The position numbers and the translations under genes are program-made. A stretch of 64,000 nucleotides of DNA from a bacterium (GTDB lineage: Bacteria > Patescibacteriota > CPR2 > UBA1875 > JAJYID01): the NCBI GenBank assembly GCA_021787535.1, contig JAJYLR010000001.1, positions 556,321-620,320 on the forward strand. Direction: 5' to 3'. A model generated the notes under the pieces. That model was not told the origin of the DNA. It ran no database searches and was given only the letters and a program-made list of their open reading frames with translations. Positions 6,735-60,296 of the stretch are shown here, one piece after another; within the stretch, counting starts at the first letter, position 1; every line of letters begins with the position of its first letter.

Positions 6735-9700
6735 CTAATCACTCGTCACATCTATCTCAGGCAAATCCGCTCCTTTGCCCTCGATAATTTCCGCATCTTT
6801 CAATTCTTCAATATCTTCTTCATACTCAGTTTCTATAACTTCTTCGGCTGTCGCTTCTCTTTTGATCCGATCTTTAGCATCTTTCTGCAAGAGTTCAATA
6901 TTCAAACCTAAACCTTGCAGCTCTTTAGTTAAAACATTGAAAGACTCCGGTATACCCGGCTCTTTAATTTGTTCACCTTTAATAGTAGATTCATAAACCT
7001 TGCTTCTGCCGATTACATCATCACTCTTCACTGTTAACATTTCCTGCAAAGTATGGGCGGCCCCATAAGCTTCAAGTGCCCAGACTTCCATCTCTCCAAA
7101 TCTCTGGCCTCCGTTTTGGGCTTTTCCGCCGAGCGGCTGCTGCGTCACCATGGCATATGGGCCGATTGATCTGGCATGAACTTTATCCTCTACCAAATGA
7201 AGTAATTTTAAAATGTAGTTATAACCGACTGTTGTTTTCTGATTGAAGTATTCACCGGTCCTGCCGTCTCTCAGCCGGATCCGGCCGTCTTCCGGCAAAC
7301 CGGCTTTTGCAAGTTCTTCCTTGATATTTTCAATGTTTACGCCATTAAAAACAGGTGAAGCCACTTTATAGCCAAGCGCTTTAGCCGCCCATCCAAGATG
7401 AGTCTCTAAAACCTGCCCGATGTTAAGGCGGGAAACAACCCCTAGAGGATTTAAAATGACGTCAACCGGCGTGCCGTCTTCAAGATAAGGCAGGTCTTCA
7501 ACCGGCAGAATTCTGGCAATCACTCCTTTGTTTCCGTGGCGCCCGGCCATCTTATCCCCGACCGCTACCTTTCTCATTTGAGCAACGGTAACAAATACCT
7601 GCTTTATAACCCCGACCGGCAGCTCGTCGCCTTTATCCCTGGACTTAATTCTGACATCGATCACTTTGCCATTCAGCCGCGACGGCAGCCGAAGCGACGT
7701 GTCTTTCACATCACGGGCTTTTTCACCGAAAATAGCACGGAGCAGTCTTTCCTCAGCCGTTAGCTCGGTCTCGCCTTTTGCAGTAATCTTACCGACCAAA
7801 ATATCGCCCGACGTTACTTCGGCGCCGATTCTCACTATCCCATCCTCATCCAGATCGCGAAGAGCTTCTTCACCGACATTTGGAATATCGCGGGTAATCA
7901 CTTCGGGACCAAGTTTGGTATCACGAACATCTATAGGAAACTCTTCCAGGTGGATAGAAGTATATCTATCATCCGAAACGAGCCGTTCTGAAATAATAAT
8001 AGCATCTTCGTAGTTGCCTCCTTGCCAATTCATGTATGCCACAAGGACATTCTGGCCTAAAGCTATCTCTCCGTCTTCTGTGGCAGTCCCGTCTATTAAA
8101 AGATCGCCTTTTTTAATTTTCTGTTCTTTTTCAACAACAGTTTTTTGATTGATGCAGGTTCCCTGATTAGACATCGCAAATTTATCTAGCGCATAAATTT
8201 CTTCTTTGCCATCTGTGTATTTAACAGCTACGGAATCAGCCGTAGAAGCAATAACTTCTCCGCCTGTGCGAGCTCTCACAATTTGCCCGGACGATTCCGC
8301 TACATTCCCTTCAACGCCGGTTCCTACAACCGGTGACTCCGGTTTCACAAGAGAAACGGCCTGGCGCTGCATGTTTGCGCCCATCAGGGCTCTCTTTGCA
8401 TCATCATGTTCCAAAAATGGTATGAGAGCTGTTGAGATGCTGACAGATTGTTTAGTTGAGACGTCAAGATAATCTATTTCTTCCACTAGCGCTTCGTCTG
8501 CTTCCAGTTTTCTCCTGACCGGAAGAATTTTATCCTTGAAATATCCCTTTTCATCCAGAGGTGTGCTGGCTTCGGCAATAATAGAATTTTCTTCCTGAGC
8601 TGCATTTAAATAAACTATATCGTCTGATACTCTTGATTTGATTTTAATGATATCTTTTTTCACCTTTTGAAGCTGCGCAGCTATTTTTTGAGTGATAACA
8701 TCTCCGCTGTCCACAACCTTTCTCGCTCCGTCTTTGATGGTTTCAGCTGAAATTTCTCCAACCGGAGATTTGCCGTCATTTTTCACTTCTTTCAGTACTT
8801 TACGGTACGGCGCTTCTAAGAATCCATATTCATTGACTCTCGCATATGAAGCAAGAGCATTCACAAGACCAATATTCGGCCCTTCGGGAGTTTCTATCGG
8901 ACAAATGCGGCCGTAATGCGTACGGTGCACATCTCTAACCTCAAAACCTGCCCTTTCGCGGGTTAAACCGCCGGGACCGAGAGCTGATAATCTTCTTTTA
9001 TTTGAAAGTTCAGCGAGCGGATTTGTTTGATCCATAAATTGCGAAAGCTGAGATGAAGCAAAGAATTCTTTAATAGAAGCAACAACCGGTCTCACATTTA
9101 CCAGCTGGCTCGGGGTAACCGTTTCGGGGTCATTGGTACTCATCCGGTCTTTGATGATTCTCTCAGTCCTTAGCATCCCTACCCTGAATCTCTGTTGTAG
9201 TAGCTCGCCCATAGTTCTGAGCCGTCTGTTTGCTAAGTGATCAATGTCATCATGTTCTCCCTGTGCATTGTTCAGTTTAATAATTTCTTTAATAACTTCA
9301 ACCAGATCGCTCACCTGAAATACTCTGTGTTTTCTATCTTCCGGCAAATTCAAACCCAACCGTTGGTTTATCTTGAATCTGCCAACGCGCGAAAGATCAT
9401 ATTTTCTATGGTCAAAAAACATTCCGTCAATCAAAGATTTGGAATTATCGGCAGTTGCAAGATCACCGGGACGGATCTTTTTATAAGTTTCTATATAGGC
9501 CTCTTCTCTATTGGAGGAAGTGTCTTTTTCTAAAGTAGCATTTATATAGTCATGTTCCTTATCAGTATTAACTGAAGTGAAAAGCTTTTTTATATCTTCA
9601 TCCGCGGCATAACCAAAAGCTCGAAGCAAAGTTGTAACAGGAAATTTTCTCTTGCGGTCGATTTTGACATAGATCACATCCTGAGCCGATGTTTCCAGTT

Positions 9701-10211
9701 CAAGCCAAGCGCCATAGACCGGAATAATTTTGGCGCCGAAATATTTTCTTCCGCTTATCCAGTCAACAGTAAAAAATGCACCCGGTGAGCGCATTAGCTG
9801 GCTAATTATGACTCTCTCGACACCATTGATAATAAAAGTCCCTCTCTCTGTCATAATAGGCAAGTCGCCGAGAAATATCTCTTGATTCCGAGTTTTCCCG
9901 GTAACCTTGTTTTTGAGCTCTAGATTGACTCTGATAGGAGCTTCATAAGTCATCTTTTTTTGTTTGGCAACTTTTTCCGAATGTTTTTCTTCTTCTAGAT
10001 AATAATCTTTAAAAGACAGCTCTAAGTTCTGTTTGGTAAAATCTTCTATCGGAGAGAGTTCTTCGAATATTTCTCCTATGCCTTCTTTAACAAACCAGTT
10101 GTAACTATCGGCCTGAATTTCAAGAAGATTTGGCAGCGGCAAGATCTCCTTTGTTTTATTAAAATACTTCCTTTGTGTTTTCGATGCGGTCACAGAGTCG
10201 CTTTTTGCCAT
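6735..10211 (-). CDS. rpoB: DNA-directed RNA polymerase subunit beta
   Basis: 1158 aa; conserved RpoB blocks (GEMEVWALEAYGAA, ...RHGNKGV...), directly upstream of rpoC. Confidence 0.97.
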   Translation of the reverse strand: MAKSDSVTASKTQRKYFNKTKEILPLPNLLEIQADSYNWFVKEGIGEIFEELSPIEDFTKQNLELSFKDYYLEEEKHSEKVAKQKKMTYEAPIRVNLELKNKVTGKTRNQEIFLGDLPIMTERGTFIINGVERVIISQLMRSPGAFFTVDWISGRKYFGAKIIPVYGAWLELETSAQDVIYVKIDRKRKFPVTTLLRAFGYAADEDIKKLFTSVNTDKEHDYINATLEKDTSSNREEAYIETYKKIRPGDLATADNSKSLIDGMFFDHRKYDLSRVGRFKINQRLGLNLPEDRKHRVFQVSDLVEVIKEIIKLNNAQGEHDDIDHLANRRLRTMGELLQQRFRVGMLRTERIIKDRMSTNDPETVTPSQLVNVRPVVASIKEFFASSQLSQFMDQTNPLAELSNKRRLSALGPGGLTRERAGFEVRDVHRTHYGRICPIETPEGPNIGLVNALASYARVNEYGFLEAPYRKVLKEVKNDGKSPVGEISAETIKDGARKVVDSGDVITQKIAAQLQKVKKDIIKIKSRVSDDIVYLNAAQEENSIIAEASTPLDEKGYFKDKILPVRRKLEADEALVEEIDYLDVSTKQSVSISTALIPFLEHDDAKRALMGANMQRQAVSLVKPESPVVGTGVEGNVAESSGQIVRARTGGEVIASTADSVAVKYTDGKEEIYALDKFAMSNQGTCINQKTVVEKEQKIKKGDLLIDGTATEDGEIALGQNVLVAYMNWQGGNYEDAIIISERLVSDDRYTSIHLEEFPIDVRDTKLGPEVITRDIPNVGEEALRDLDEDGIVRIGAEVTSGDILVGKITAKGETELTAEERLLRAIFGEKARDVKDTSLRLPSRLNGKVIDVRIKSRDKGDELPVGVIKQVFVTVAQMRKVAVGDKMAGRHGNKGVIARILPVEDLPYLEDGTPVDVILNPLGVVSRLNIGQVLETHLGWAAKALGYKVASPVFNGVNIENIKEELAKAGLPEDGRIRLRDGRTGEYFNQKTTVGYNYILKLLHLVEDKVHARSIGPYAMVTQQPLGGKAQNGGQRFGEMEVWALEAYGAAHTLQEMLTVKSDDVIGRSKVYESTIKGEQIKEPGIPESFNVLTKELQGLGLNIELLQKDAKDRIKREATAEEVIETEYEEDIEELKDAEIIEGKGADLPEIDVTSD

Positions 10212-11445: not shown

Positions 11446-12066
11446 CTATCTCCTCGATTCGATTATTTTATCAACCATACCATAAGTTTTAGCTTCCCGA
11501 GCGCTCATAAAGTAGTCTCTTTCAACATCCTCGGCAACTTTTTTAACGCCTTGGCCCGTATGTTTGGCTAAAATATTATTCAGATTTTCTTTGAGTCTTC
11601 TTATTTCTTTAGTGTGGATTTCAATATCAGTCACTTGTCCGCCCATACCCATAATATGCGGCTGATGAATCATAATCTGAGAGTTTGGCAGTGAAAATCT
11701 TTTATTCTTTACTCCTGCACCCAGCAGTATAGCCGCGCCGCTCGCAGCAAGTCCAACACAAATCGTTGAAACATCGGGCTTTATATATTGCATGGTGTCA
11801 TAGATTGCCAGTGCTGAAGAGACTGCGCCTCCCGGCGAATTAATGTACAAATTAATATCTTTTTTAGGATCCTCACTTTCTAAAAATAGAAGCTGGGCAA
11901 TAATAATATTTGCCACGGTATCATCGATCGGAGTCCCCAGAAAAACTATGCGGTCTTTCAAAAGCCGCGAATAAATATCATAGGCCCTCTCACCCATGTG
12001 AGTTTTTTCAATGACTGTGGGAATAAGTATTTGGTTTTTAGGTGTCATATTCTTCCTTTCTGTCAT
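11446..12066 (-). CDS. clpP: ATP-dependent Clp protease proteolytic subunit
   Basis: [19 protein letters not shown]...INSPGG(S)...MIHQP... catalytic Ser/His context. The ATG for MTERKNM is preceded by AAGGAGG; the ORF track starts 6 nt earlier at GTG. Confidence 0.9.
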
Positions 12067-12147
12067 TCCCACCCTCCTTTGTCATTCCCGCGCAGGCGGG
12101 AATCCAGAATTTATTTGTATAGATTCCGGATCAAGTCCGGAATGACA
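12061..12147. repeat. Cluster of 3 palindromic repeat units (tgtcattcc / gtcattcccgcgcaggcgggaatcc / gattccggatcaagtccggaatgac)
   Basis: Imperfect hairpin units with GTCATTCC...GGAATGAC ends in the clpP-tig spacer, overlapping the clpP RBS and start. The last unit is the reverse complement of the copy at 56788-56812. Confidence 0.7.
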
Positions 12148-14011: not shown

Positions 14012-14754
14012 TTATGCCGCTTCGGACATTGCTTTTTCAAGCGCATCCCACTTGTCTTTCGGTTTCCAGACGACATTGCCTGCTTCGATGTCGTCTTTGA
14101 CGTAAGGATCATCCTGACAATAATCCTTCATCTTGATGCGTACCAACTCTGTGACAGGAATGGATAAACCACCTTTGGTCATATAGGAACCATCCACATC
14201 CATAGACCGATTAAGAAGGCAAATAATTCTCCAAACATTACCTCCTCCGGCCTGAATCAGCGGAACCAGCTTCTCAGTTGTCGAGAAGTTATTGCAAACA
14301 TCCTCGACAATGGCATACCTGACGCCCGGTTCCACCGAGTCGCGAGCGAATACCAGATCCGTTTCCTCGCGCGAAGATTCCGTTGCCAGGGCAGTTACTT
14401 TCTTCTCGGCTTTTATGACGGGTACGCCATAGACGAGGCCGAGGATGGCGGCAAATGAATAACCGCCAAGAGGAGCGCCGCAAAAGGCCTGAATTGCACC
14501 GTAAAAGAGGTGGCCGATATCAAGGTCACGAGCATAATGCTCAAGTATCCAAGGATAGTTATCGGCTTTAGCGAAGTTACAGTAAACTTCACCGACTTTC
14601 TGCTTCTTCACTCCGTTCTCGTCTTCGTATGTGCCGGCATAGCCGACAAGCGGACCAATCCTTTTGCCGGACGCATCTTTCGGACACTCATAGTAACCCT
14701 TGATGGCCCGGAGAGTCCTGAGAGAATCACCCGGAACTATTTCTGCCTTCATTT
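14012..14754 (-). CDS. pyrE: Orotate phosphoribosyltransferase-like protein
   Basis: PRTase signature YAIVEDVCNNFSTTEKLV (VxDVxxTG-like PRPP-binding loop). It sits directly downstream of pyrF, and its start at MKAEIVPG follows AGGAGGAG. Confidence 0.6.
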
Positions 14755-17247: not shown

Positions 17248-17334
17248 TGGTGCCGCGGGGGAGACTCGAACTCCCAATCCGGTTAAGGAACTAGTTCCTA
17301 AGACTAGCGCGTATACCAATTCCGCCACCGCGGC
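17248..17334 (-). tRNA. tRNA-Leu (anticodon UAG), with encoded CCA
   Basis: Reverse complement GCCGCGG...CTAGT-CTTAGGA-ACTAG...GGGAGTTCGAGTCTCCC-CCGCGGC-A-CCA. It has a 7-bp acceptor stem, anticodon loop CU-UAG-GA, a long variable arm and a GTTCGAGTC T-loop. Confidence 0.85.
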
Positions 17335-17432
17335 TAAATGTTGAACTATTCTATCATGTATCCTTACCGAAGTTAAGCATAAAAATCAAGTATTGGTTCC
17401 ATTCAATTACCAAAAAATTATGCAAAGAGAAA

Positions 17433-17454
17433 GGGCGCCTTTATTAAGGCGCCC
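17433..17454. terminator. Hairpin gggcgcctTTATTaaggcgccc flanked by A/T runs
   Basis: 8-bp GC stem. The minus-strand reading is followed by tttctctttgcataatttttt, so it could terminate a minus-strand transcript from the ORF-free region 17460-18300. Confidence 0.45.
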
Positions 17455-18030
17455 AGTTGCGATCAATAAAACGTGGGGAAATAAGAGATCGCAATATTCA
17501 CACAGTGCACTTATTACTTAAATTAATGAGATGACTTTCCCCAAAATCATCTCTTTCATCATAGCTTTTCCGTTTCTGTCTTTTTATCTAAGATGGTCTT
17601 CCATCAAGTGTGAAGCACTTTGACCCTTCAGAGTTGGAGTTATAGAACTCGAGCTCGGATCTAGTATTTACAACACTCTTTAAAAGGTCTTAGCATCGAC
17701 AACTACGGTACTTGCTACGACGGCTACTGATCTTTTCTTTTGCCCCTAACAATCTACCGTCGGCCGGAGTGCAAGTGATTTTGCCTACTCAAGACCGATT
17801 TCGGTCAAGGGAAACTGGCGCAATTCTCTTACAGCTACTCGAGCCCAATTGGTAAAGGGTATGTGACGACAAAAGTACCCAATCAGTAACACTAAATATG
17901 ATACACTAACTTCAAAATTTTGTCAACATTTTTCTGGCTCTCTAACCTTTAGCGTGGTAAATTCGTGCTTACTTGAGCACAAAAAAGTTGTCCGGACAAG
18001 TTTTAGAGTAAATTAATTTTTTTGCGTCTT

Positions 18031-18108
18031 GTCATTCTGGCTTGTCCAGAATCAATTTTTAAGATTTAAGGAAAAGGATTCCGGTCTCCTAATCGTCGCC
18101 AGAATGAC
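18031..18108. repeat. Composite palindromic repeat gtcattctggcttgtccagaatc ... gccagaatgac
   Basis: An inner hairpin attctgg/ccagaat plus an outer inverted repeat gtcattctggc/gccagaatgac 55 nt apart. The same 23-mer recurs at 21171, 55912 and 60215. Confidence 0.65.
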
Positions 18109-18448
18109 AATACTCATAAGATTTATTATTGCCAAGATTTACCACGCTAATCGGCGAAGAGTCCCATTTTTCTGATTTTTTAATTCCCTAAATTAAAAAG
18201 TCCCTTACGAGATCAAAAAACGTTTCGCATTAATTAGTGAAAAATGAAAAACAAACTAGAGTCTTCTTCCTTAGCAACTTACTAGCTTATCAACCATATT
18301 TCTTATTTAAAAGGCGCGGGGTCGCCGCGCCTTTCCGCTCGGATAGCGGCAATCCTGCTTATAAAGATAAGCACATATAAATTACTTATCCACCACCCTT
18401 AGATAAATTTTACAGCCGCCAAAAATCCAAAACAAGTATACAAAAATT

Positions 18449-20631: not shown

Positions 20632-20981
20632 TTTTTACTCTCTAGGACTTGGATCCTTATCCCAAGCGCACCATATTTTTCCTCTTTTTCCTTCGGATAG
20701 TAGTTCACATAAGTTGATGATATAAAATCTTCCCTGTTCCAGTTTCTAAAATGCCTTTCGCCCAGCAAATCATAAAGTTCGCCAAACGTTTTGCAAGATA
20801 TTAGTTCAACTACCTCAACCAAGAGTTTTTCAGCTAAATCAGGTCTTTTTAAGAACTCAATTTTGTCGCCAATCCTAAGTTTCTGCCTTTTCTCATCATT
20901 AAGCCGCACTTCGACAGTCTTTTCTCCGCTTTTCAGCTCTTCGAAGGGTCGTGCATTTAATCTCATATAATGTGTTTTCAT
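20628..20981 (-). CDS. ASCH domain protein
   Basis: 117 aa; MKTHYMRLNARPFEELKSGEKTVEVRLNDEKR... resembles the ASCH (PUA-like) beta-barrel N-terminus. 4-nt start/stop overlaps with both neighbours. Confidence 0.55.
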   Translation of the reverse strand: MKTHYMRLNARPFEELKSGEKTVEVRLNDEKRQKLRIGDKIEFLKRPDLAEKLLVEVVELISCKTFGELYDLLGERHFRNWNREDFISSTYVNYYPKEKEEKYGALGIRIQVLESKK

Positions 20982-21418
20982 AAACTTACCTGATTCTTAA
21001 TTTGCTCAAATTTACTTTCTCCGATTCCCGGCACTTTTTTCAAATCTTCCAGTACTTTAAATAATCCGTTTTGGTTGCGCCAATCAATGATTTTTTGTGC
21101 CGTTGCCGGACCGATGCCCTGTAGCTTATCTAAATCTTGCAAATCGGCGGTGTTTATATTAATTTTTGCCGTCATTCTGGCTTGTCCAGAATCTGTCTGC
21201 CCGCCCTTTACTTCAGAATTTGTCTGAATGTCAGTCTTTTGCGGCTGGACAATTTTAATCGGCTCTTTGCCGTCATCCGAATATTTAATAAAGAGCAGTC
21301 CTGTCCCGCCGATAATACCGATCACCAGTAAAATGCCTATGTTATTATAGATTCTCTGTCTTCTATCCTTTTTTTGATCTTGATCCATAAAACCTTTAAT
21401 ATTCAATGCCGAAAACAT
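20978..21418 (-). CDS. comEA: ComEA-like helix-hairpin-helix DNA-binding protein
   Basis: N-terminal TM segment and C-terminal INTADLQDLDKLQGIGPATAQKIIDWRNQNG.F..LEDLKKVPGIG (tandem HhH). Contains an in-frame copy of the 23-nt repeat encoding DSGQARMT. Confidence 0.75.
   Translation of the reverse strand: MFSALNIKGFMDQDQKKDRRQRIYNNIGILLVIGIIGGTGLLFIKYSDDGKEPIKIVQPQKTDIQTNSEVKGGQTDSGQARMTAKININTADLQDLDKLQGIGPATAQKIIDWRNQNGLFKVLEDLKKVPGIGESKFEQIKNQVSL
21171..21193. repeat. Palindromic repeat gtcattctggcttgtccagaatc inside comEA coding sequence (in frame)
   Basis: Identical 23-mer to 18031 and 55912. On the minus strand it translates as ...DSGQARMT... within the ComEA ORF. Confidence 0.7.
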
Positions 21419-25587: not shown

Positions 25588-25713
25588 GTCATTCCGACTG
25601 ACACCACGCCAGTGGCGAATGGAGGAATCCTTTTCCTCTAGTAACTTACCAACTTATAAACTCTTTCAAGGGATTTCTCGACTCGTCGCTCCGCGAAGTC
25701 GTTCGAAATGACA
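25588..25713. repeat. Two palindromic repeat units (gtcattccgactgacaccacgccagtggcgaatggaggaatcc; ggatttctcgactcgtcgctccgcgaagtcgttcgaaatgaca) upstream of recG
   Basis: Same GTCATTCCGA...GGAGGAATCC family as 30699, 55004, 56480 and 56750. They are preceded by an AT-rich CCAAT array (25535-25568). Confidence 0.7.
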
Positions 25714-30578: not shown

Positions 30579-31232
30579 CTACTGAGACACAAATTTATTG
30601 TCTTTGATTGTAAACCGCCAAAGCTTATCGCGGTAAATGTCGGCATAGTCTATGCCAATGCGTTTTGAGGTTTCGATTTTAAATTTATTAAAGAAAGAGA
30701 TTCCTCCACTCGTCGCTCTGCGAAGTCGGTCGGAATGACAGAGAAAAGGATCCTCAACCCAAACGCGATCTGAATCCGTAATGTCTTCATCGTAGAATGT
30801 TTTATCCAGATTAAGGGCGGCGCACAGTTTACCCGGCCCTTTCATGAAATCTTTGTCCGAGCGAACCCGGCCGAAATTTCTTAAATTTTCTCTGGCAAAT
30901 TCAATTCCGCCAACCGGTTCAAGGGCGCGGATTAAAACTGCCTCCGGCACATGTTCCTTTGCAGTTACAATATTGAAGTTATAGTACATCCCATAAATCA
31001 GATAGATGTAAATATGGCCGGCTGCACCATACATGACTTTGTTGCGCTCGGTTTTGCCATTACGCGCGTGGCAAGCCAGGTCTTCTTCGCCGACATAGGC
31101 TTCAGTCTCGACAATTTTGCCGCTAATAATACCTTGATCGGTTTTTCTGACTAATATTTTACCTAGGAGTTCCGGCGCCACCTCTAGCACCGGCCGCTCA
31201 AAGAATGTTCGATCCAATTTTGAATTTTGCAT
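30579..31232 (-). CDS. DNA-3-methyladenine glycosylase (Mpg/AAG family)
   Basis: VETEAYVGEEDLACHARNGKTERN...YGAAGHIYIYLIYGMYYNFNIV matches the Mpg family. The C-terminus contains an in-frame palindromic repeat. Confidence 0.8.
   Translation of the reverse strand: MQNSKLDRTFFERPVLEVAPELLGKILVRKTDQGIISGKIVETEAYVGEEDLACHARNGKTERNKVMYGAAGHIYIYLIYGMYYNFNIVTAKEHVPEAVLIRALEPVGGIEFARENLRNFGRVRSDKDFMKGPGKLCAALNLDKTFYDEDITDSDRVWVEDPFLCHSDRLRRATSGGISFFNKFKIETSKRIGIDYADIYRDKLWRFTIKDNKFVSQ
30699..30740. repeat. Palindromic repeat gattcctccactcgtcgctctgcgaagtcggtcggaatgaca inside the 3mA-glycosylase coding sequence (in frame)
   Basis: Same family as 25671-25713; translated as LCHSDRLRRATSGGI within the ORF. 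Confidence 0.7.
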
Positions 31233-55003: not shown

Positions 55004-55051
55004 TACACTTGCTGTCATTCCGAGCGATCCGACAACCGCCGGACGACAAGC
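55004..55051. repeat. Palindromic repeat gtcattccgagcgatccgacaaccgccggacgacaagccgaggaatcc
   Basis: GTCATTCCGAGCGA...GAGGAATCC family member in the PPIase upstream region, followed by a CCAAT/ATTGG array at 55076-55175. Confidence 0.65.
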
Positions 55052-55178
55052 CGAGGAATCCCTTGGCTTTTAATTTACAATTTACAAGCCCCAATTTTCA
55101 ATGAATGAGTCAATGTTTCAATTTTCAAATTTATTAATTGGGACTTGATTGGTTATTAGTTATTGGAAATTGGTCATT

Positions 55179-56669
55179 CTAAACCTTTGGTTTATATTTT
55201 CTCCACTCTTCATTCCCTGTTGCTTTTTCGAACTGATGCGCAACATTCAGTATCTTCGCCTCTTCAAAATGTCCTCCAATAATCTGTATCCCGATCGGCA
55301 ATTTATCAGTTGAAAATCCAGCCGGGACAGAGATTGCCGGAAGACCTGCCAGACTTACCGGAACCGTGAAAACGTCCGCCAAATACATAGAAACAGGATC
55401 TGCCTTTTCGCCAATTTTAAACGCCGGGGTCGGCGCCGTCGGTGTCAGTATCACGTCAACGTGCTCAAATGCCTTTATAAAATCATCATGAATTAATCTC
55501 CTGACTTTGGCCGCCTTCATAAAATATGCATCGTAGTAGCCGCTTGATAAAACATAAGCCCCAAGCATAATTCTCCTCTTTGCCTCGTCGCCGAATCCTT
55601 CATCGCGTGTTTTGAAGTAAGAATCAATTAAATCCTTTGAATTTTTGGCTGAAAAGCCGTATTTTACCCCATCATATCGACCCAAGTTTGAGGATGTTTC
55701 GGCTGTCATTATGATGTAGTACGCCGCCAGCGCATATTCCGTATGAGGCAGGCTGATTTCAATAACTTCTGCTCCCATTTTTTCAAGGGTTAACAAAGAT
55801 TGCTTAAACACCTCGCCAACCTCATCAAATAGTCCCAGCCCAAAATACTCTTTTGGTACGCCTATTTTTAGGCCTTCGATGCCCTTATTCAAATCCTTGG
55901 TGAAATCGGTTGTCATTCTGGCTTGTCCAGAATCGTCCTTTAGTGTGGTCGCATCCTTCGGATCTTCCCCTGCAATCACATTCAAAACTATTGCCGCATC
56001 CTCCACTGTCTTCGTTATCGGCCCGGGACAATCCAGCGATGAGCCCATGGCAATCAGCCCATAACGCGAAACCCTGCCGTATGTCGGCTTTAGGCCTACC
56101 ACCCCGCAGAAACTCGCCGGCTGGCGAATAGATCCGCCGGTGTCTGTGCCAATGGAATATGGCACTTCGCCTGCCGCTACAGCTGCCGCCGAGCCTCCTG
56201 AAGAACCGCCGGAAACCCGGGCCAAATCCCAAGGATTGGGCGTCACACCATAATCGGAGTTCTCAGTTGAGGAACCATGCGCCCAAGCATCACAGTTGTT
56301 TTTTCCGACAACTATTGCTCCGGAGTCTTTTAATTTCTTAACTACGGTCGCATCATACGGCGGAACAAAGTTATCCAGCATCTTGGCACTCGCCGTCGTC
56401 CGCAAATTCCTCGTACAAATCACATCCTTAATCCCCACCGGAATACCTTGCAGAGGACTGTCCTCTGCACTACCGCCTTTGTCATTCTGAGCGACTTCCT
56501 GAAAGGACGAGTCGAAGAATCCCTTTCCCTCGACATCTTCCGCCGTAAGTGTCGTCACGAAAGCATGCAGCTTCGGCTCAACTTCCTTAATCCTACTCAA
56601 ACAAGCAGACAAAATCTCCCGCTTATCCTCTTTTTCTAATTCTTTAATTGGTAAATCTGTAATTTTCAT
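55179..56669 (-). CDS. gatA: Glutamyl-tRNA(Gln) amidotransferase subunit A
   Basis: Amidase signature ([20 protein letters not shown]...T.AS). Start assigned to [11 protein letters not shown]. Carries two in-frame palindromic-repeat insertions. Confidence 0.92.
55912..55934. repeat. 23-nt palindromic repeat gtcattctggcttgtccagaatc inside gatA (in frame, encodes DSGQARMT)
   Basis: Identical to the copies at 18031 and 21171. Confidence 0.7.
56480..56522. repeat. Palindromic repeat gtcattctgagcgacttcctgaaaggacgagtcgaagaatcc inside gatA 5' region (in frame, encodes [14 protein letters not shown])
   Basis: GTCATTC...GAATCC family. It replaces the normally variable loop between the N-terminal helix and the GIP(V/I)(A/G)IKD motif. 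Confidence 0.7.
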
Positions 56670-56749
56670 TTCTCTTTCCCTAAATAGGTCGGATCCTTGC
56701 GTGCTCGCCAGGCCCGACCTCCCAGCAAGCAATTTTTTATTATTCTCTT

Positions 56750-56855
56750 GTCATTCCGACCAAAGTGGAGGAATCCCTTTCCTATTTGTCATTCCGGACT
56801 TGATCCGGAATCTATATAAATCATTCCTGGATCCTGAATCAAGTTCAGGATGACA
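56750..56855. repeat. Cluster of three palindromic repeat units in the gatC-gatA spacer
   Basis: gtcattccgaccaaagtggaggaatc; gtcattccggacttgatccggaatc; tcattcctggatcctgaatcaagttcaggatgac. Confidence 0.7.
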
Positions 56856-60214: not shown

Positions 60215-60296
60215 GTCATTCTGGCCTGCCCAGAATCCCGTAGAAATAGATCCTGGTCAAGCCAGGATGACAAAAAAACGGGATCCGAAATGACAT
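60215..60296. repeat. Composite palindromic repeat (gtcattctggcctgcccagaatc + atcctggtcaagccaggatgac + gggatccgaaatgac)
   Basis: Three consecutive hairpin units with GTCAT/ATGAC ends; the first is a 2-mismatch variant of the 23-mer at 18031. Confidence 0.65.

Follow-up and report, generated by a model that had tools for sequence, protein, structure and literature searches.

Palindromic repeats with an unpaired tag in front of the stem were defined by Di Nocera, De Gregorio and Rocco (2013, BMC Genomics 14:522; PMC3733652) as the superfamily of CGTC-tagged repetitive extragenic palindromic (REP) sequences. These possess a CGTC or TGTC (or CCTC) tag, a stem of 8-9 bp starting with AT, a loop of 4-5 nt and a short 3' tail with the consensus CCA, and they mostly occur as dimers in opposite orientation. 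Members are dRS3 of Neisseria (CGTC-1) and RPE-6 and RPE-4 of R. conorii; copies are also found inside open reading frames (ORFs), often in DNA-repair and tRNA-related genes, and no transposase is known for them (PMC3733652). Chenal et al (2025, Nat Commun 16:2388; PMC11893778) reported that the Neisseria Transformation Sequence (NTS, CGTCATTCCCGCGMAVGCGGGAATCYRG) and the hairpins named Ssn-related motifs (SRM) flank the gene of a 94-aa GIY-YIG nuclease, SsnA, which binds and cuts these hairpins only as single-stranded DNA (ssDNA). Cleavage by Ssn is influenced by the three nucleotides in front of the palindrome, and binding by the C that follows it directly; in Neisseria both NTS and Ssn modulate natural transformation (PMC11893778). 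The Rickettsia palindromic elements (RPEs; Ogata et al 2000/2002) are described in PMC10969869 as palindromic repeats lying in frame in protein genes. Here we report on a 23-nt palindromic repeat that occurs inside comEA and gatA in a 64-kb window, the whole stretch of contig JAJYLR010000001.1 that was analyzed. The host is a bacterium of the Patescibacteria, or candidate phyla radiation (CPR), and its closest named relative is “candidate division WS5”.

Our explanation is that the 23-mer is a CGTC/TGTC-tagged REP-like hairpin of the superfamily that comprises dRS3/NTS, SRM and RPE-4/-6, that it represents an ssDNA site of Ssn nucleases, and that its copies in genes are tolerated survivors. 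We regard this reading as probable. The repeat belongs to a known pan-bacterial family, which was missed in a preliminary description of this DNA.

Filled and empty sites in protein genes

The 23-mer GTCATTCTGGCTTGTCCAGAATC is present in three exact copies on the plus strand, at 21171-21193 in comEA, at 55912-55934 in gatA and at 18031-18053 in an intergenic region. Near-copies with two and three mismatches lie at 60215 (+) and 60249 (−), and 100 dinucleotide-preserving shuffles yielded no match. The hairpin consists of a 7-bp stem (ATTCTGG/CCAGAAT), a 5-nt loop (CTTGT), the tag cGTC and a trailing C; folded as ssDNA it has a free energy of −5.2 kcal/mol (z = −3.8). The preliminary description stated that the same 23-mer is read in the same frame as DSGQARMT in both proteins, and the sequence reads exactly as quoted there. 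The GTCAT strand is antisense to the gene in both cases, giving the frame GAT TCT GGA CAA GCC AGA ATG AC. Five of the six frames of the 23-mer are open, the antisense +1 frame holding a TGA, as can be read from the sequence itself, and among the five open frames the one encoding DSGQARMT is the most hydrophilic. It is also the commonest class of ORF-embedded copies in low-GC loci (17 of 53, many of these ORFs being unverified). As stop-free repeats extend spurious ORFs, embedded copies in other phyla were counted as genic only with homology support. Literature searches on the 23-mer and its peptides gave no matches.

The ComEA-like gene (20978-21418, −) encodes an N-terminal hydrophobic segment, ie, a membrane anchor, followed by an HHH_3 domain (E = 8.6e-23). 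The insert had been placed between the anchor and the HhH domain, and it indeed lies in the variable linker before HHH_3. The comparison of ComEA orthologues suggested in the preliminary description divides 25 relatives into the six closest ones, in which the peptide is intact or decayed (DFGQAGMT, DSEQARMT, DSGQVRMT, DSGPARMT), and 19 without it, which read VKG-EQVSAKIN. At the nucleotide level the empty comEA site of locus L128 is GAACAG GTCTCG GCGAAA where the window has GGGCAG ACAGATTCTGGACAAGCCAGAATGACG GCAAAA, a net difference of +21 nt.

In gatA (55179-56669, −; Amidase, E = 3.9e-148; open frame extending to 56732) two hairpin-derived inserts are found, at positions we call site 1 and site 2. 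The orthologues compared at site 2, which holds the exact 23-mer, are 75-82% identical to the window query. DSGQARMT occurs there also in the GatA relatives P0004 and P0008 and as a doubled copy in P0006, and further relatives show other hairpin-derived peptides (GIDSRFRGNDKG, RGNE remnants and GERDSS..GMT composites). The site is empty in P0007, P0009, P0012, P0013 and all distant GatAs, and the solved Aquifex GatA (3h0l) is shorter by six residues at this position; judged from these sequences, the empty length is the ancestral one. The gatA 23-mer is 100% identical at the nucleotide level in the window and in loci L120 and L121, the genes themselves being 74-79% identical. The empty site of L123 is 21 nt shorter than the filled sites of L120 and L121 (18 nt vs 39), and the window's own site is one codon shorter than these, a net gain of 18 nt. 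The syntenic 21 kb of L123 are free of family hairpins, and L121 has nine. A separately recorded assembly (L125) matches 3,554 nt of the window, including the gatA copy, with no mismatch. On a rough neighbor-joining tree of GatA with very short internal branches and no support values, bearers of the 23-mer and empty lineages are interspersed.

Site 1 in the N-terminal part of GatA represents a second hotspot. P0005, P0006 and P0015 possess DSGQARMT here, and the window and P0002 carry a longer variant of the hairpin instead (GTCATTCTGAGCGACTTCCTGAAAGGACGAGTCGAAGAATC, 56481-56521, +); the closest relative has the same insert and other relatives are without it. One of the nine hairpins of L121, GTCATTCCCGCGGAGGCGGGAATC, is canonical and NTS-like and is positioned in frame within gatB (14182-14205). 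In this clade the GatCAB operon as a whole seems to be hit recurrently. A long variant occupies 30699-30739 (−) of the gene for a 3-methyladenine DNA glycosylase (mpg, 30579-31232, −), gene and hairpin being on one strand. Its position coincides with that of a 16-aa insert in Mpg, which is missing in the L129 orthologue (73% identity). Two frames are thus used for the long variant (…QND and …GMT, one reading being RDSSTRPSGKSLGMT), and in mpg it is read from the other strand.

The preliminary description had interpreted the shared peptide as the signature of a mobile in-frame element. One half of this interpretation holds: a dispersed palindromic repeat has inserted the peptide, and empty orthologous sites exist for both genes. 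The intrinsic in-frame nature finds no support, as the unit of 23 nt is not a multiple of three, only four of at least 16 copies are genic, and the long variant occurs in two frames and on the other strand. The actual mobility of the hairpin is inferred from its patchy distribution among the sequences compared.

Further insertions were noted in the same protein. In-frame palindromes of unrelated appearance are present in the GatA relatives P0003, P0004, P0005, P0015 and P0016 and at site 1 of L120; examples are GAGGTCCGACCTC...GAGGTCGGACCTC, read as LLGGPTSREVGP, the peptide HSTSLRAG at a third site, and inserts containing SHTPGEK. Several repeat families seem, from these sequences, to use the same permissive GatA loops. 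Site 2 of the L126 gatA (P0002) is occupied by a composite of three elements, about 100 nt in total. One of them looks like a hairpin of the 23-mer type into which a further 20-nt palindrome has been placed, and a 3' half-remnant, GTCAGAATGAC, comes next. The sequence suggests that elements were inserted within, or one after the other at, a copy already in place. An AlphaFold model of GatA from a 20-sequence alignment (mean pLDDT 52) was too poor to place the inserts on surface loops and was not used.

The hairpin family and its association with Ssn-like genes

The window contains at least 16 copies of the family, nine short ones, found by a pattern of GTCAT followed by a hairpin and C, and at least seven longer relatives spanning 26-47 nt. 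Twelve copies are intergenic and only four fall into genes, in a window that is 86% coding (P about 8e-8). Features that stay constant are the C/TGTC tag, a stem opening with AT, a loop of the CTTG type and a C behind the stem, and the stems vary between copies through compensatory changes. The unpaired tag, cGTC or tGTC, starts all nine short copies and the long ones likewise; loops of 4-5 nt and stems of the type AT.../...AT are found throughout, and the CCCGCG, CCGGA and CCTGAA variants have 8 bp vs 7 bp in the 23-mer. The first base 3' of the stem is always C, and the two following positions are included in the variation (CTG, CGT, CAA, CCA, CCC). GTC before and C after the palindrome are thus invariant in all window copies; the same holds for flank variants and, by construction, for 134 matches from other phyla. 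The heptamer GTCATYC occurs 27 times in the window compared to an expected 12.9 ± 3.5. Five convergent hairpin pairs were counted, which is the arrangement of most intergenic copies, and among all low-GC loci fetched 28 of 29 neighboring hairpins not more than 60 nt apart are convergent.

A hint towards the enzyme involved arises from related loci. In L070 a 96-aa GIY-YIG ORF (PF01541, E = 4e-11) is enclosed at a distance of 0-7 nt by a pair of inverted copies of GTCATTCTGGCTTGGCCAGAATC, which differs from the window 23-mer by one base in the loop. Homologues of this protein come mostly from Patescibacteria, on short contigs, and in L078 hairpins also flank a small GIY-YIG gene. Among 80 metagenomic loci encoding relatives of the L070 protein, 54 have an inverted family hairpin at −15 to +150 of the 3' end; in 35 a hairpin precedes the gene on its own strand, and 29 have hairpins on both sides. 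The commonest flank among the closest relatives is the exact window 23-mer, and the more distant relatives come with CCGG and CCCGCG stems. This covariation suggests that nuclease clades and hairpin variants may form cognate pairs. In L129, a locus of the WS5 relative, a 93-aa Ssn-like gene (9615-9896; E = 5e-41 against a profile hidden Markov model built from 29 Ssn-like proteins) is located directly upstream of comEA between convergent long hairpins. The window DNA syntenic to this locus has no such gene, yet the window comEA carries the hairpin; the comEA of L129 carries a decayed copy. The nearest solved structures to the Patescibacteria GIY-YIG proteins are UPF0213 proteins.

The hairpin is not confined to this lineage. 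A scan of one genome per species with the pattern GTCATTCTGG-N5-CCAGAATC returned at least 119 stretches from Nitrospirota, Nitrospinota, Acidobacteriota (Acidobacteriaceae), Gammaproteobacteria, Bacteroidota, Ignavibacteriaceae and many Patescibacteria. The exact 23-mer with the CTTGT loop accounts for 47 of the 134 matches listed. In Acidobacteriota and Gammaproteobacteria (Acidobacteriaceae, Rhodanobacteraceae) we observed the same outer stem with GAA or GCA as the loop, extended at its 3' side by a conserved (T/C)CCGTATTTG. At positions 1-200 of L116, a metagenome-assembled genome of Granulicella, units of this form are repeated in tandem about every 37 nt; low-GC genomes have convergent pairs instead.

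As to the individual copies outside the genes, the intergenic 23-mer at 18031-18053 is the left part of a convergent pair with the imperfect hairpin GTCATTCTGGCGACGATTAGGAGACCGGAATC (18077-18108, −). The canonical copy TGTCATTCCCGCGCAGGCGGGAATCCAG (12080-12107, +), which agrees with the Neisseria NTS consensus except for its first base, includes the short copy GTCATTCCCGCGCAGGCGGGAATC (from 12081, +) returned by the search for GTCAT, hairpin and C, and has GTCATTCCGGACTTGATCCGGAATC (12122-12146, −) as its convergent partner. The same GTCATTCCGGACTTGATCCGGAATC recurs at 56788-56812 (+) in the gatC-gatA spacer, where it pairs with GTCATCCTGAACTTGATTCAGGATC (56830-56854, −), a hairpin with a different stem, to form a heterodimer; a short relative, GTCATTCCGACCAAAGTGGAGGAATC (56750-56775, +), is found just upstream of gatA. 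The two near-copies form a further intergenic pair. On its left is GTCATTCTGGCCTGCCCAGAATC (60215-60237, +), a loop variant of the 23-mer, and on its right GTCATCCTGGCTTGACCAGGATC (60249-60271, −) with a compensatory stem change from T-A to C-G. Of the long variants, GTCATTCCGACTGACACCACGCCAGTGGCGAATGGAGGAATC (25588-25629, +) is intergenic and convergent with a copy at 25671-25712 (−; plus-strand text ...GGATTTCTCGACTCGTCGCTCCGCGAAGTCGTTCGAAATGAC, coordinates by eye), and GTCATTCCGAGCGATCC...GAGGAATC (55014-55060, +) is intergenic and downstream of gatA.

The pair around 18031 belongs to a region of about 1 kb (17335-18380) without plausible ORF that adjoins a tRNA gene (17251-17334, −). A perfect 14-bp inverted repeat, TTAGCGTGGTAAAT / ATTTACCACGCTAA (17949-17962 / 18137-18150), encloses the two hairpins. 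Searches against Rfam, at the gathering threshold for the whole window and at an E-value threshold for 17300-18400, returned one tRNA and no match to the hairpins, and 17335-18380 has no credible Rfam match. The repeat-bracketed region could be an element of about 200 bp similar to a miniature inverted-repeat transposable element, or an undescribed RNA. The hairpins also touch gene starts. The start region (12062-12072) of the ORF at 11446-12072 enters a partial hairpin, GTCATTCCCACC, at 12062, and the database GatA P0001 (517 aa) begins with a TTG that precedes the conserved MKITDL start by 21 codons (window 56670-56732). Both starts are probably mis-called by upstream extension through stop-free repeats. 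Caution is advised for annotation in general, as frames that stay open through these repeats can give false N-terminal extensions.

Origin and maintenance of the genic copies

The mechanism we propose is that the hairpins serve as ssDNA recognition sites for small GIY-YIG nucleases of the Ssn type. In Patescibacteria the 23-mer typically flanks an Ssn-like gene, and hairpins and gene together make up a compact unit similar to an insertion sequence. The copies have probably multiplied through the lineage chiefly into intergenic DNA, as convergent pairs, and in a minority into coding DNA. On the simplest reading insertion itself is not aware of the reading frame, and selection retains the frame-preserving inserts: those genic copies would persist that add a multiple of three, fall into length-tolerant loops or linkers, contain no stop and encode a hydrophilic peptide. 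Such a survival filter on frame, stops and hydrophilicity would leave two unrelated proteins with the same eight residues, and the shared frame is best explained as survivorship of open, hydrophilic insertions. The explanation draws on the family identity of the hairpins, the filled and empty sites, the depletion of copies in genes, the convergent pairs that mirror the hairpin-ssn-hairpin arrangement and the nuclease association in relatives, all of them features of sequence. From these we infer that the multiplication was driven by an enzyme of the Ssn type, one that works in trans or was active in the past and is possibly encoded elsewhere in the genome.

Several observations speak against this proposal. 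We know of no transposition chemistry for Ssn proteins. Neither a motif scan nor the profile search detected a GIY-YIG or Ssn-like gene in the window or in L120-L126, and 20-kb stretches of four relatives likewise gave none in the profile search. A specific model for Ssn-like proteins is absent from NCBIfam, and our label “Ssn-like” is based on the Pfam GIY-YIG family. The filled/empty comparisons show no readable target-site duplication or conserved insertion target, the orthologues being too diverged at the junctions. The 23-mer has a stem of 7 bp and not of 8-9 bp as reported for CGTC REPs, and it fails the published SRM search pattern, HGTCWYN(0-2)YYVSBRHN(0-5)WNVSBRGN(0-2)RNCYNB, to which only the copy at 12080-12107 conforms within the window. 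While this weakens the relatedness, it does not exclude it, because the pattern was built by hand from 29 genomes of four phyla. Finally, simple neutral survival of one old insertion does not predict a gatA 23-mer that is 100% identical in orthologues of 74-79% identity. A perfect gatA copy next to decaying comEA copies, with bearers and empty lineages interspersed, would suggest re-insertion or turnover at a hotspot, conversion between copies, or selection on the site.

The last of these points leads to a different view of the genic copies, namely that they are kept as functional DNA or RNA sites, be it as Ssn sites marking self DNA or modulating recombination of ssDNA, or as copies re-installed by homing or gene conversion. 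We consider this unlikely, but the perfect conservation in three lineages, the interspersed bearers on the GatA tree, the ssn gene adjoining comEA in L129 and the influence of NTS and Ssn on transformation in Neisseria (PMC11893778) all agree with it. It is difficult to reconcile with the ordinary point mutations by which the comEA copies of relatives decay, with a close relative (L123) that manages without any copy, and with other stem variants and remnants occupying the same site; the internal branches of the GatA tree, moreover, are very short and unsupported. A more specific proposal is that the hairpin/Ssn pair represents an ssDNA self-marking or restriction system tied to DNA uptake in naturally competent, DNA-scavenging CPR bacteria, with genic copies that are maintained or re-installed. 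This stays compatible with the data because of the perfect gatA 23-mer, the recurrence of unrelated hairpin variants at both GatA loops and the ssn gene upstream of comEA in L129, and we hold it to be quite doubtful. A DNA uptake sequence in the usual sense was considered too and rejected, as there is no evidence of the typical copy density or strand bias.

The general look of the family, a short palindrome that is dispersed, mostly extragenic and present singly or as inverted pairs, is also that of classical REPs and their paired form (REPINs) mobilized by a RAYT, a tyrosine transposase similar to those of IS200/IS605. Such an origin is very improbable given that the tag is C/TGTC and not GTAG, that CGTC REPs were reported without an associated tyrosine transposase (PMC3733652), and that the gene flanked by the hairpin encodes a GIY-YIG nuclease. 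One could instead regard DSGQARMT as a selected peptide motif, its nucleotide identity being secondary to convergence or to domain shuffling at the protein level, since the same peptide is read in the same frame in two proteins. This we find scarcely tenable: the same 23 nt are also present as a non-coding copy at 18031 and recur in many phyla, the coding copies do not differ even at synonymous positions, translation of related variants uses other frames and the opposite strand, and the peptide decays in ComEA relatives. Least credible of all is an artefact of assembly or binning, ie, chimeric joins induced by repeats in a metagenome-assembled genome. Short repeats can mislead assemblers and contigs bearing ssn are often short, but here the frames are intact, the flanking synteny is conserved, and the same insert stands at the same codon in L120, L121 and L125, separately recorded assemblies from different samples.

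Relation to known repeat systems

Our explanation extends the CGTC-REP/Ssn-motif family to the Patescibacteria, including a stem variant missed by the published pattern. In these very compact genomes hairpins have been written repeatedly into loops of essential proteins of translation and DNA handling (GatA, GatB, ComEA, Mpg). This explains why CPR proteins vary in length and contain odd short inserts, and why peptides of the type DSGQARMT or DSRLRGND recur in predicted proteomes. The Ssn field gains natural candidates for cognate pairs of a nuclease clade and a hairpin variant.

The agreement with the CGTC REPs is found in the tag, in a stem beginning with A-T and then T-A, in the loop of 4-5 nt and in a tail that starts with C, as well as in the dimers of opposite orientation, often heterodimers, in the presence of several stem types per genome and in copies within open ORFs. 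The window family differs in that its tail is not CCA, in that the identical 23-mer is common to several phyla, and in its host, as the Patescibacteria are not among the five phyla reported. With the SRM/NTS hairpins the family shares GTC before and C after the palindrome, one window copy being a near-perfect NTS, and a stem that varies with the nuclease clade. The hairpin-gene-hairpin arrangement, with a GIY-YIG gene of about 95 aa in the middle, is shared in related loci (L070, L129 and the 54 of 80 metagenomic loci), not in the window. Intragenic or in-frame copies and Patescibacteria are not mentioned by Chenal et al, and binding and cleavage of the hairpins described here are predicted from sequence.

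A close parallel to the genic copies is provided by the RPEs. There as well palindromes lie in many unrelated housekeeping genes, keep the frame and add a conserved peptide in tolerant regions, in a host of small genome size and dependent lifestyle. In-frame inserts of this type were found in comEA, at two sites of gatA, in mpg and in gatB of L121, with empty orthologues at the 23-mer sites. The size is different, classical RPE-1 measuring about 100-150 bp and 30-50 aa compared to 23 nt and 8 aa here, and so is the genic share, about a quarter here vs roughly half for some RPE families. REPs and REPINs resemble the family in being short hairpins that are mostly extragenic and commonly arranged as inverted doublets; those associated with a RAYT carry a GTAG tag and are linked to a tyrosine transposase, whereas the window copies carry C/TGTC, and in related loci the hairpin flanks a GIY-YIG gene.

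Precedents are thus known for the hairpin as such, in the CGTC REPs and the Ssn motif, and for its intragenic position, in RPE-4 and RPE-6 of Rickettsia. New are the host from the Patescibacteria, the stem variant that escapes the SRM pattern, the fact that the same loops of essential proteins have been hit more than once, and the identity of the 23-mer across phyla.

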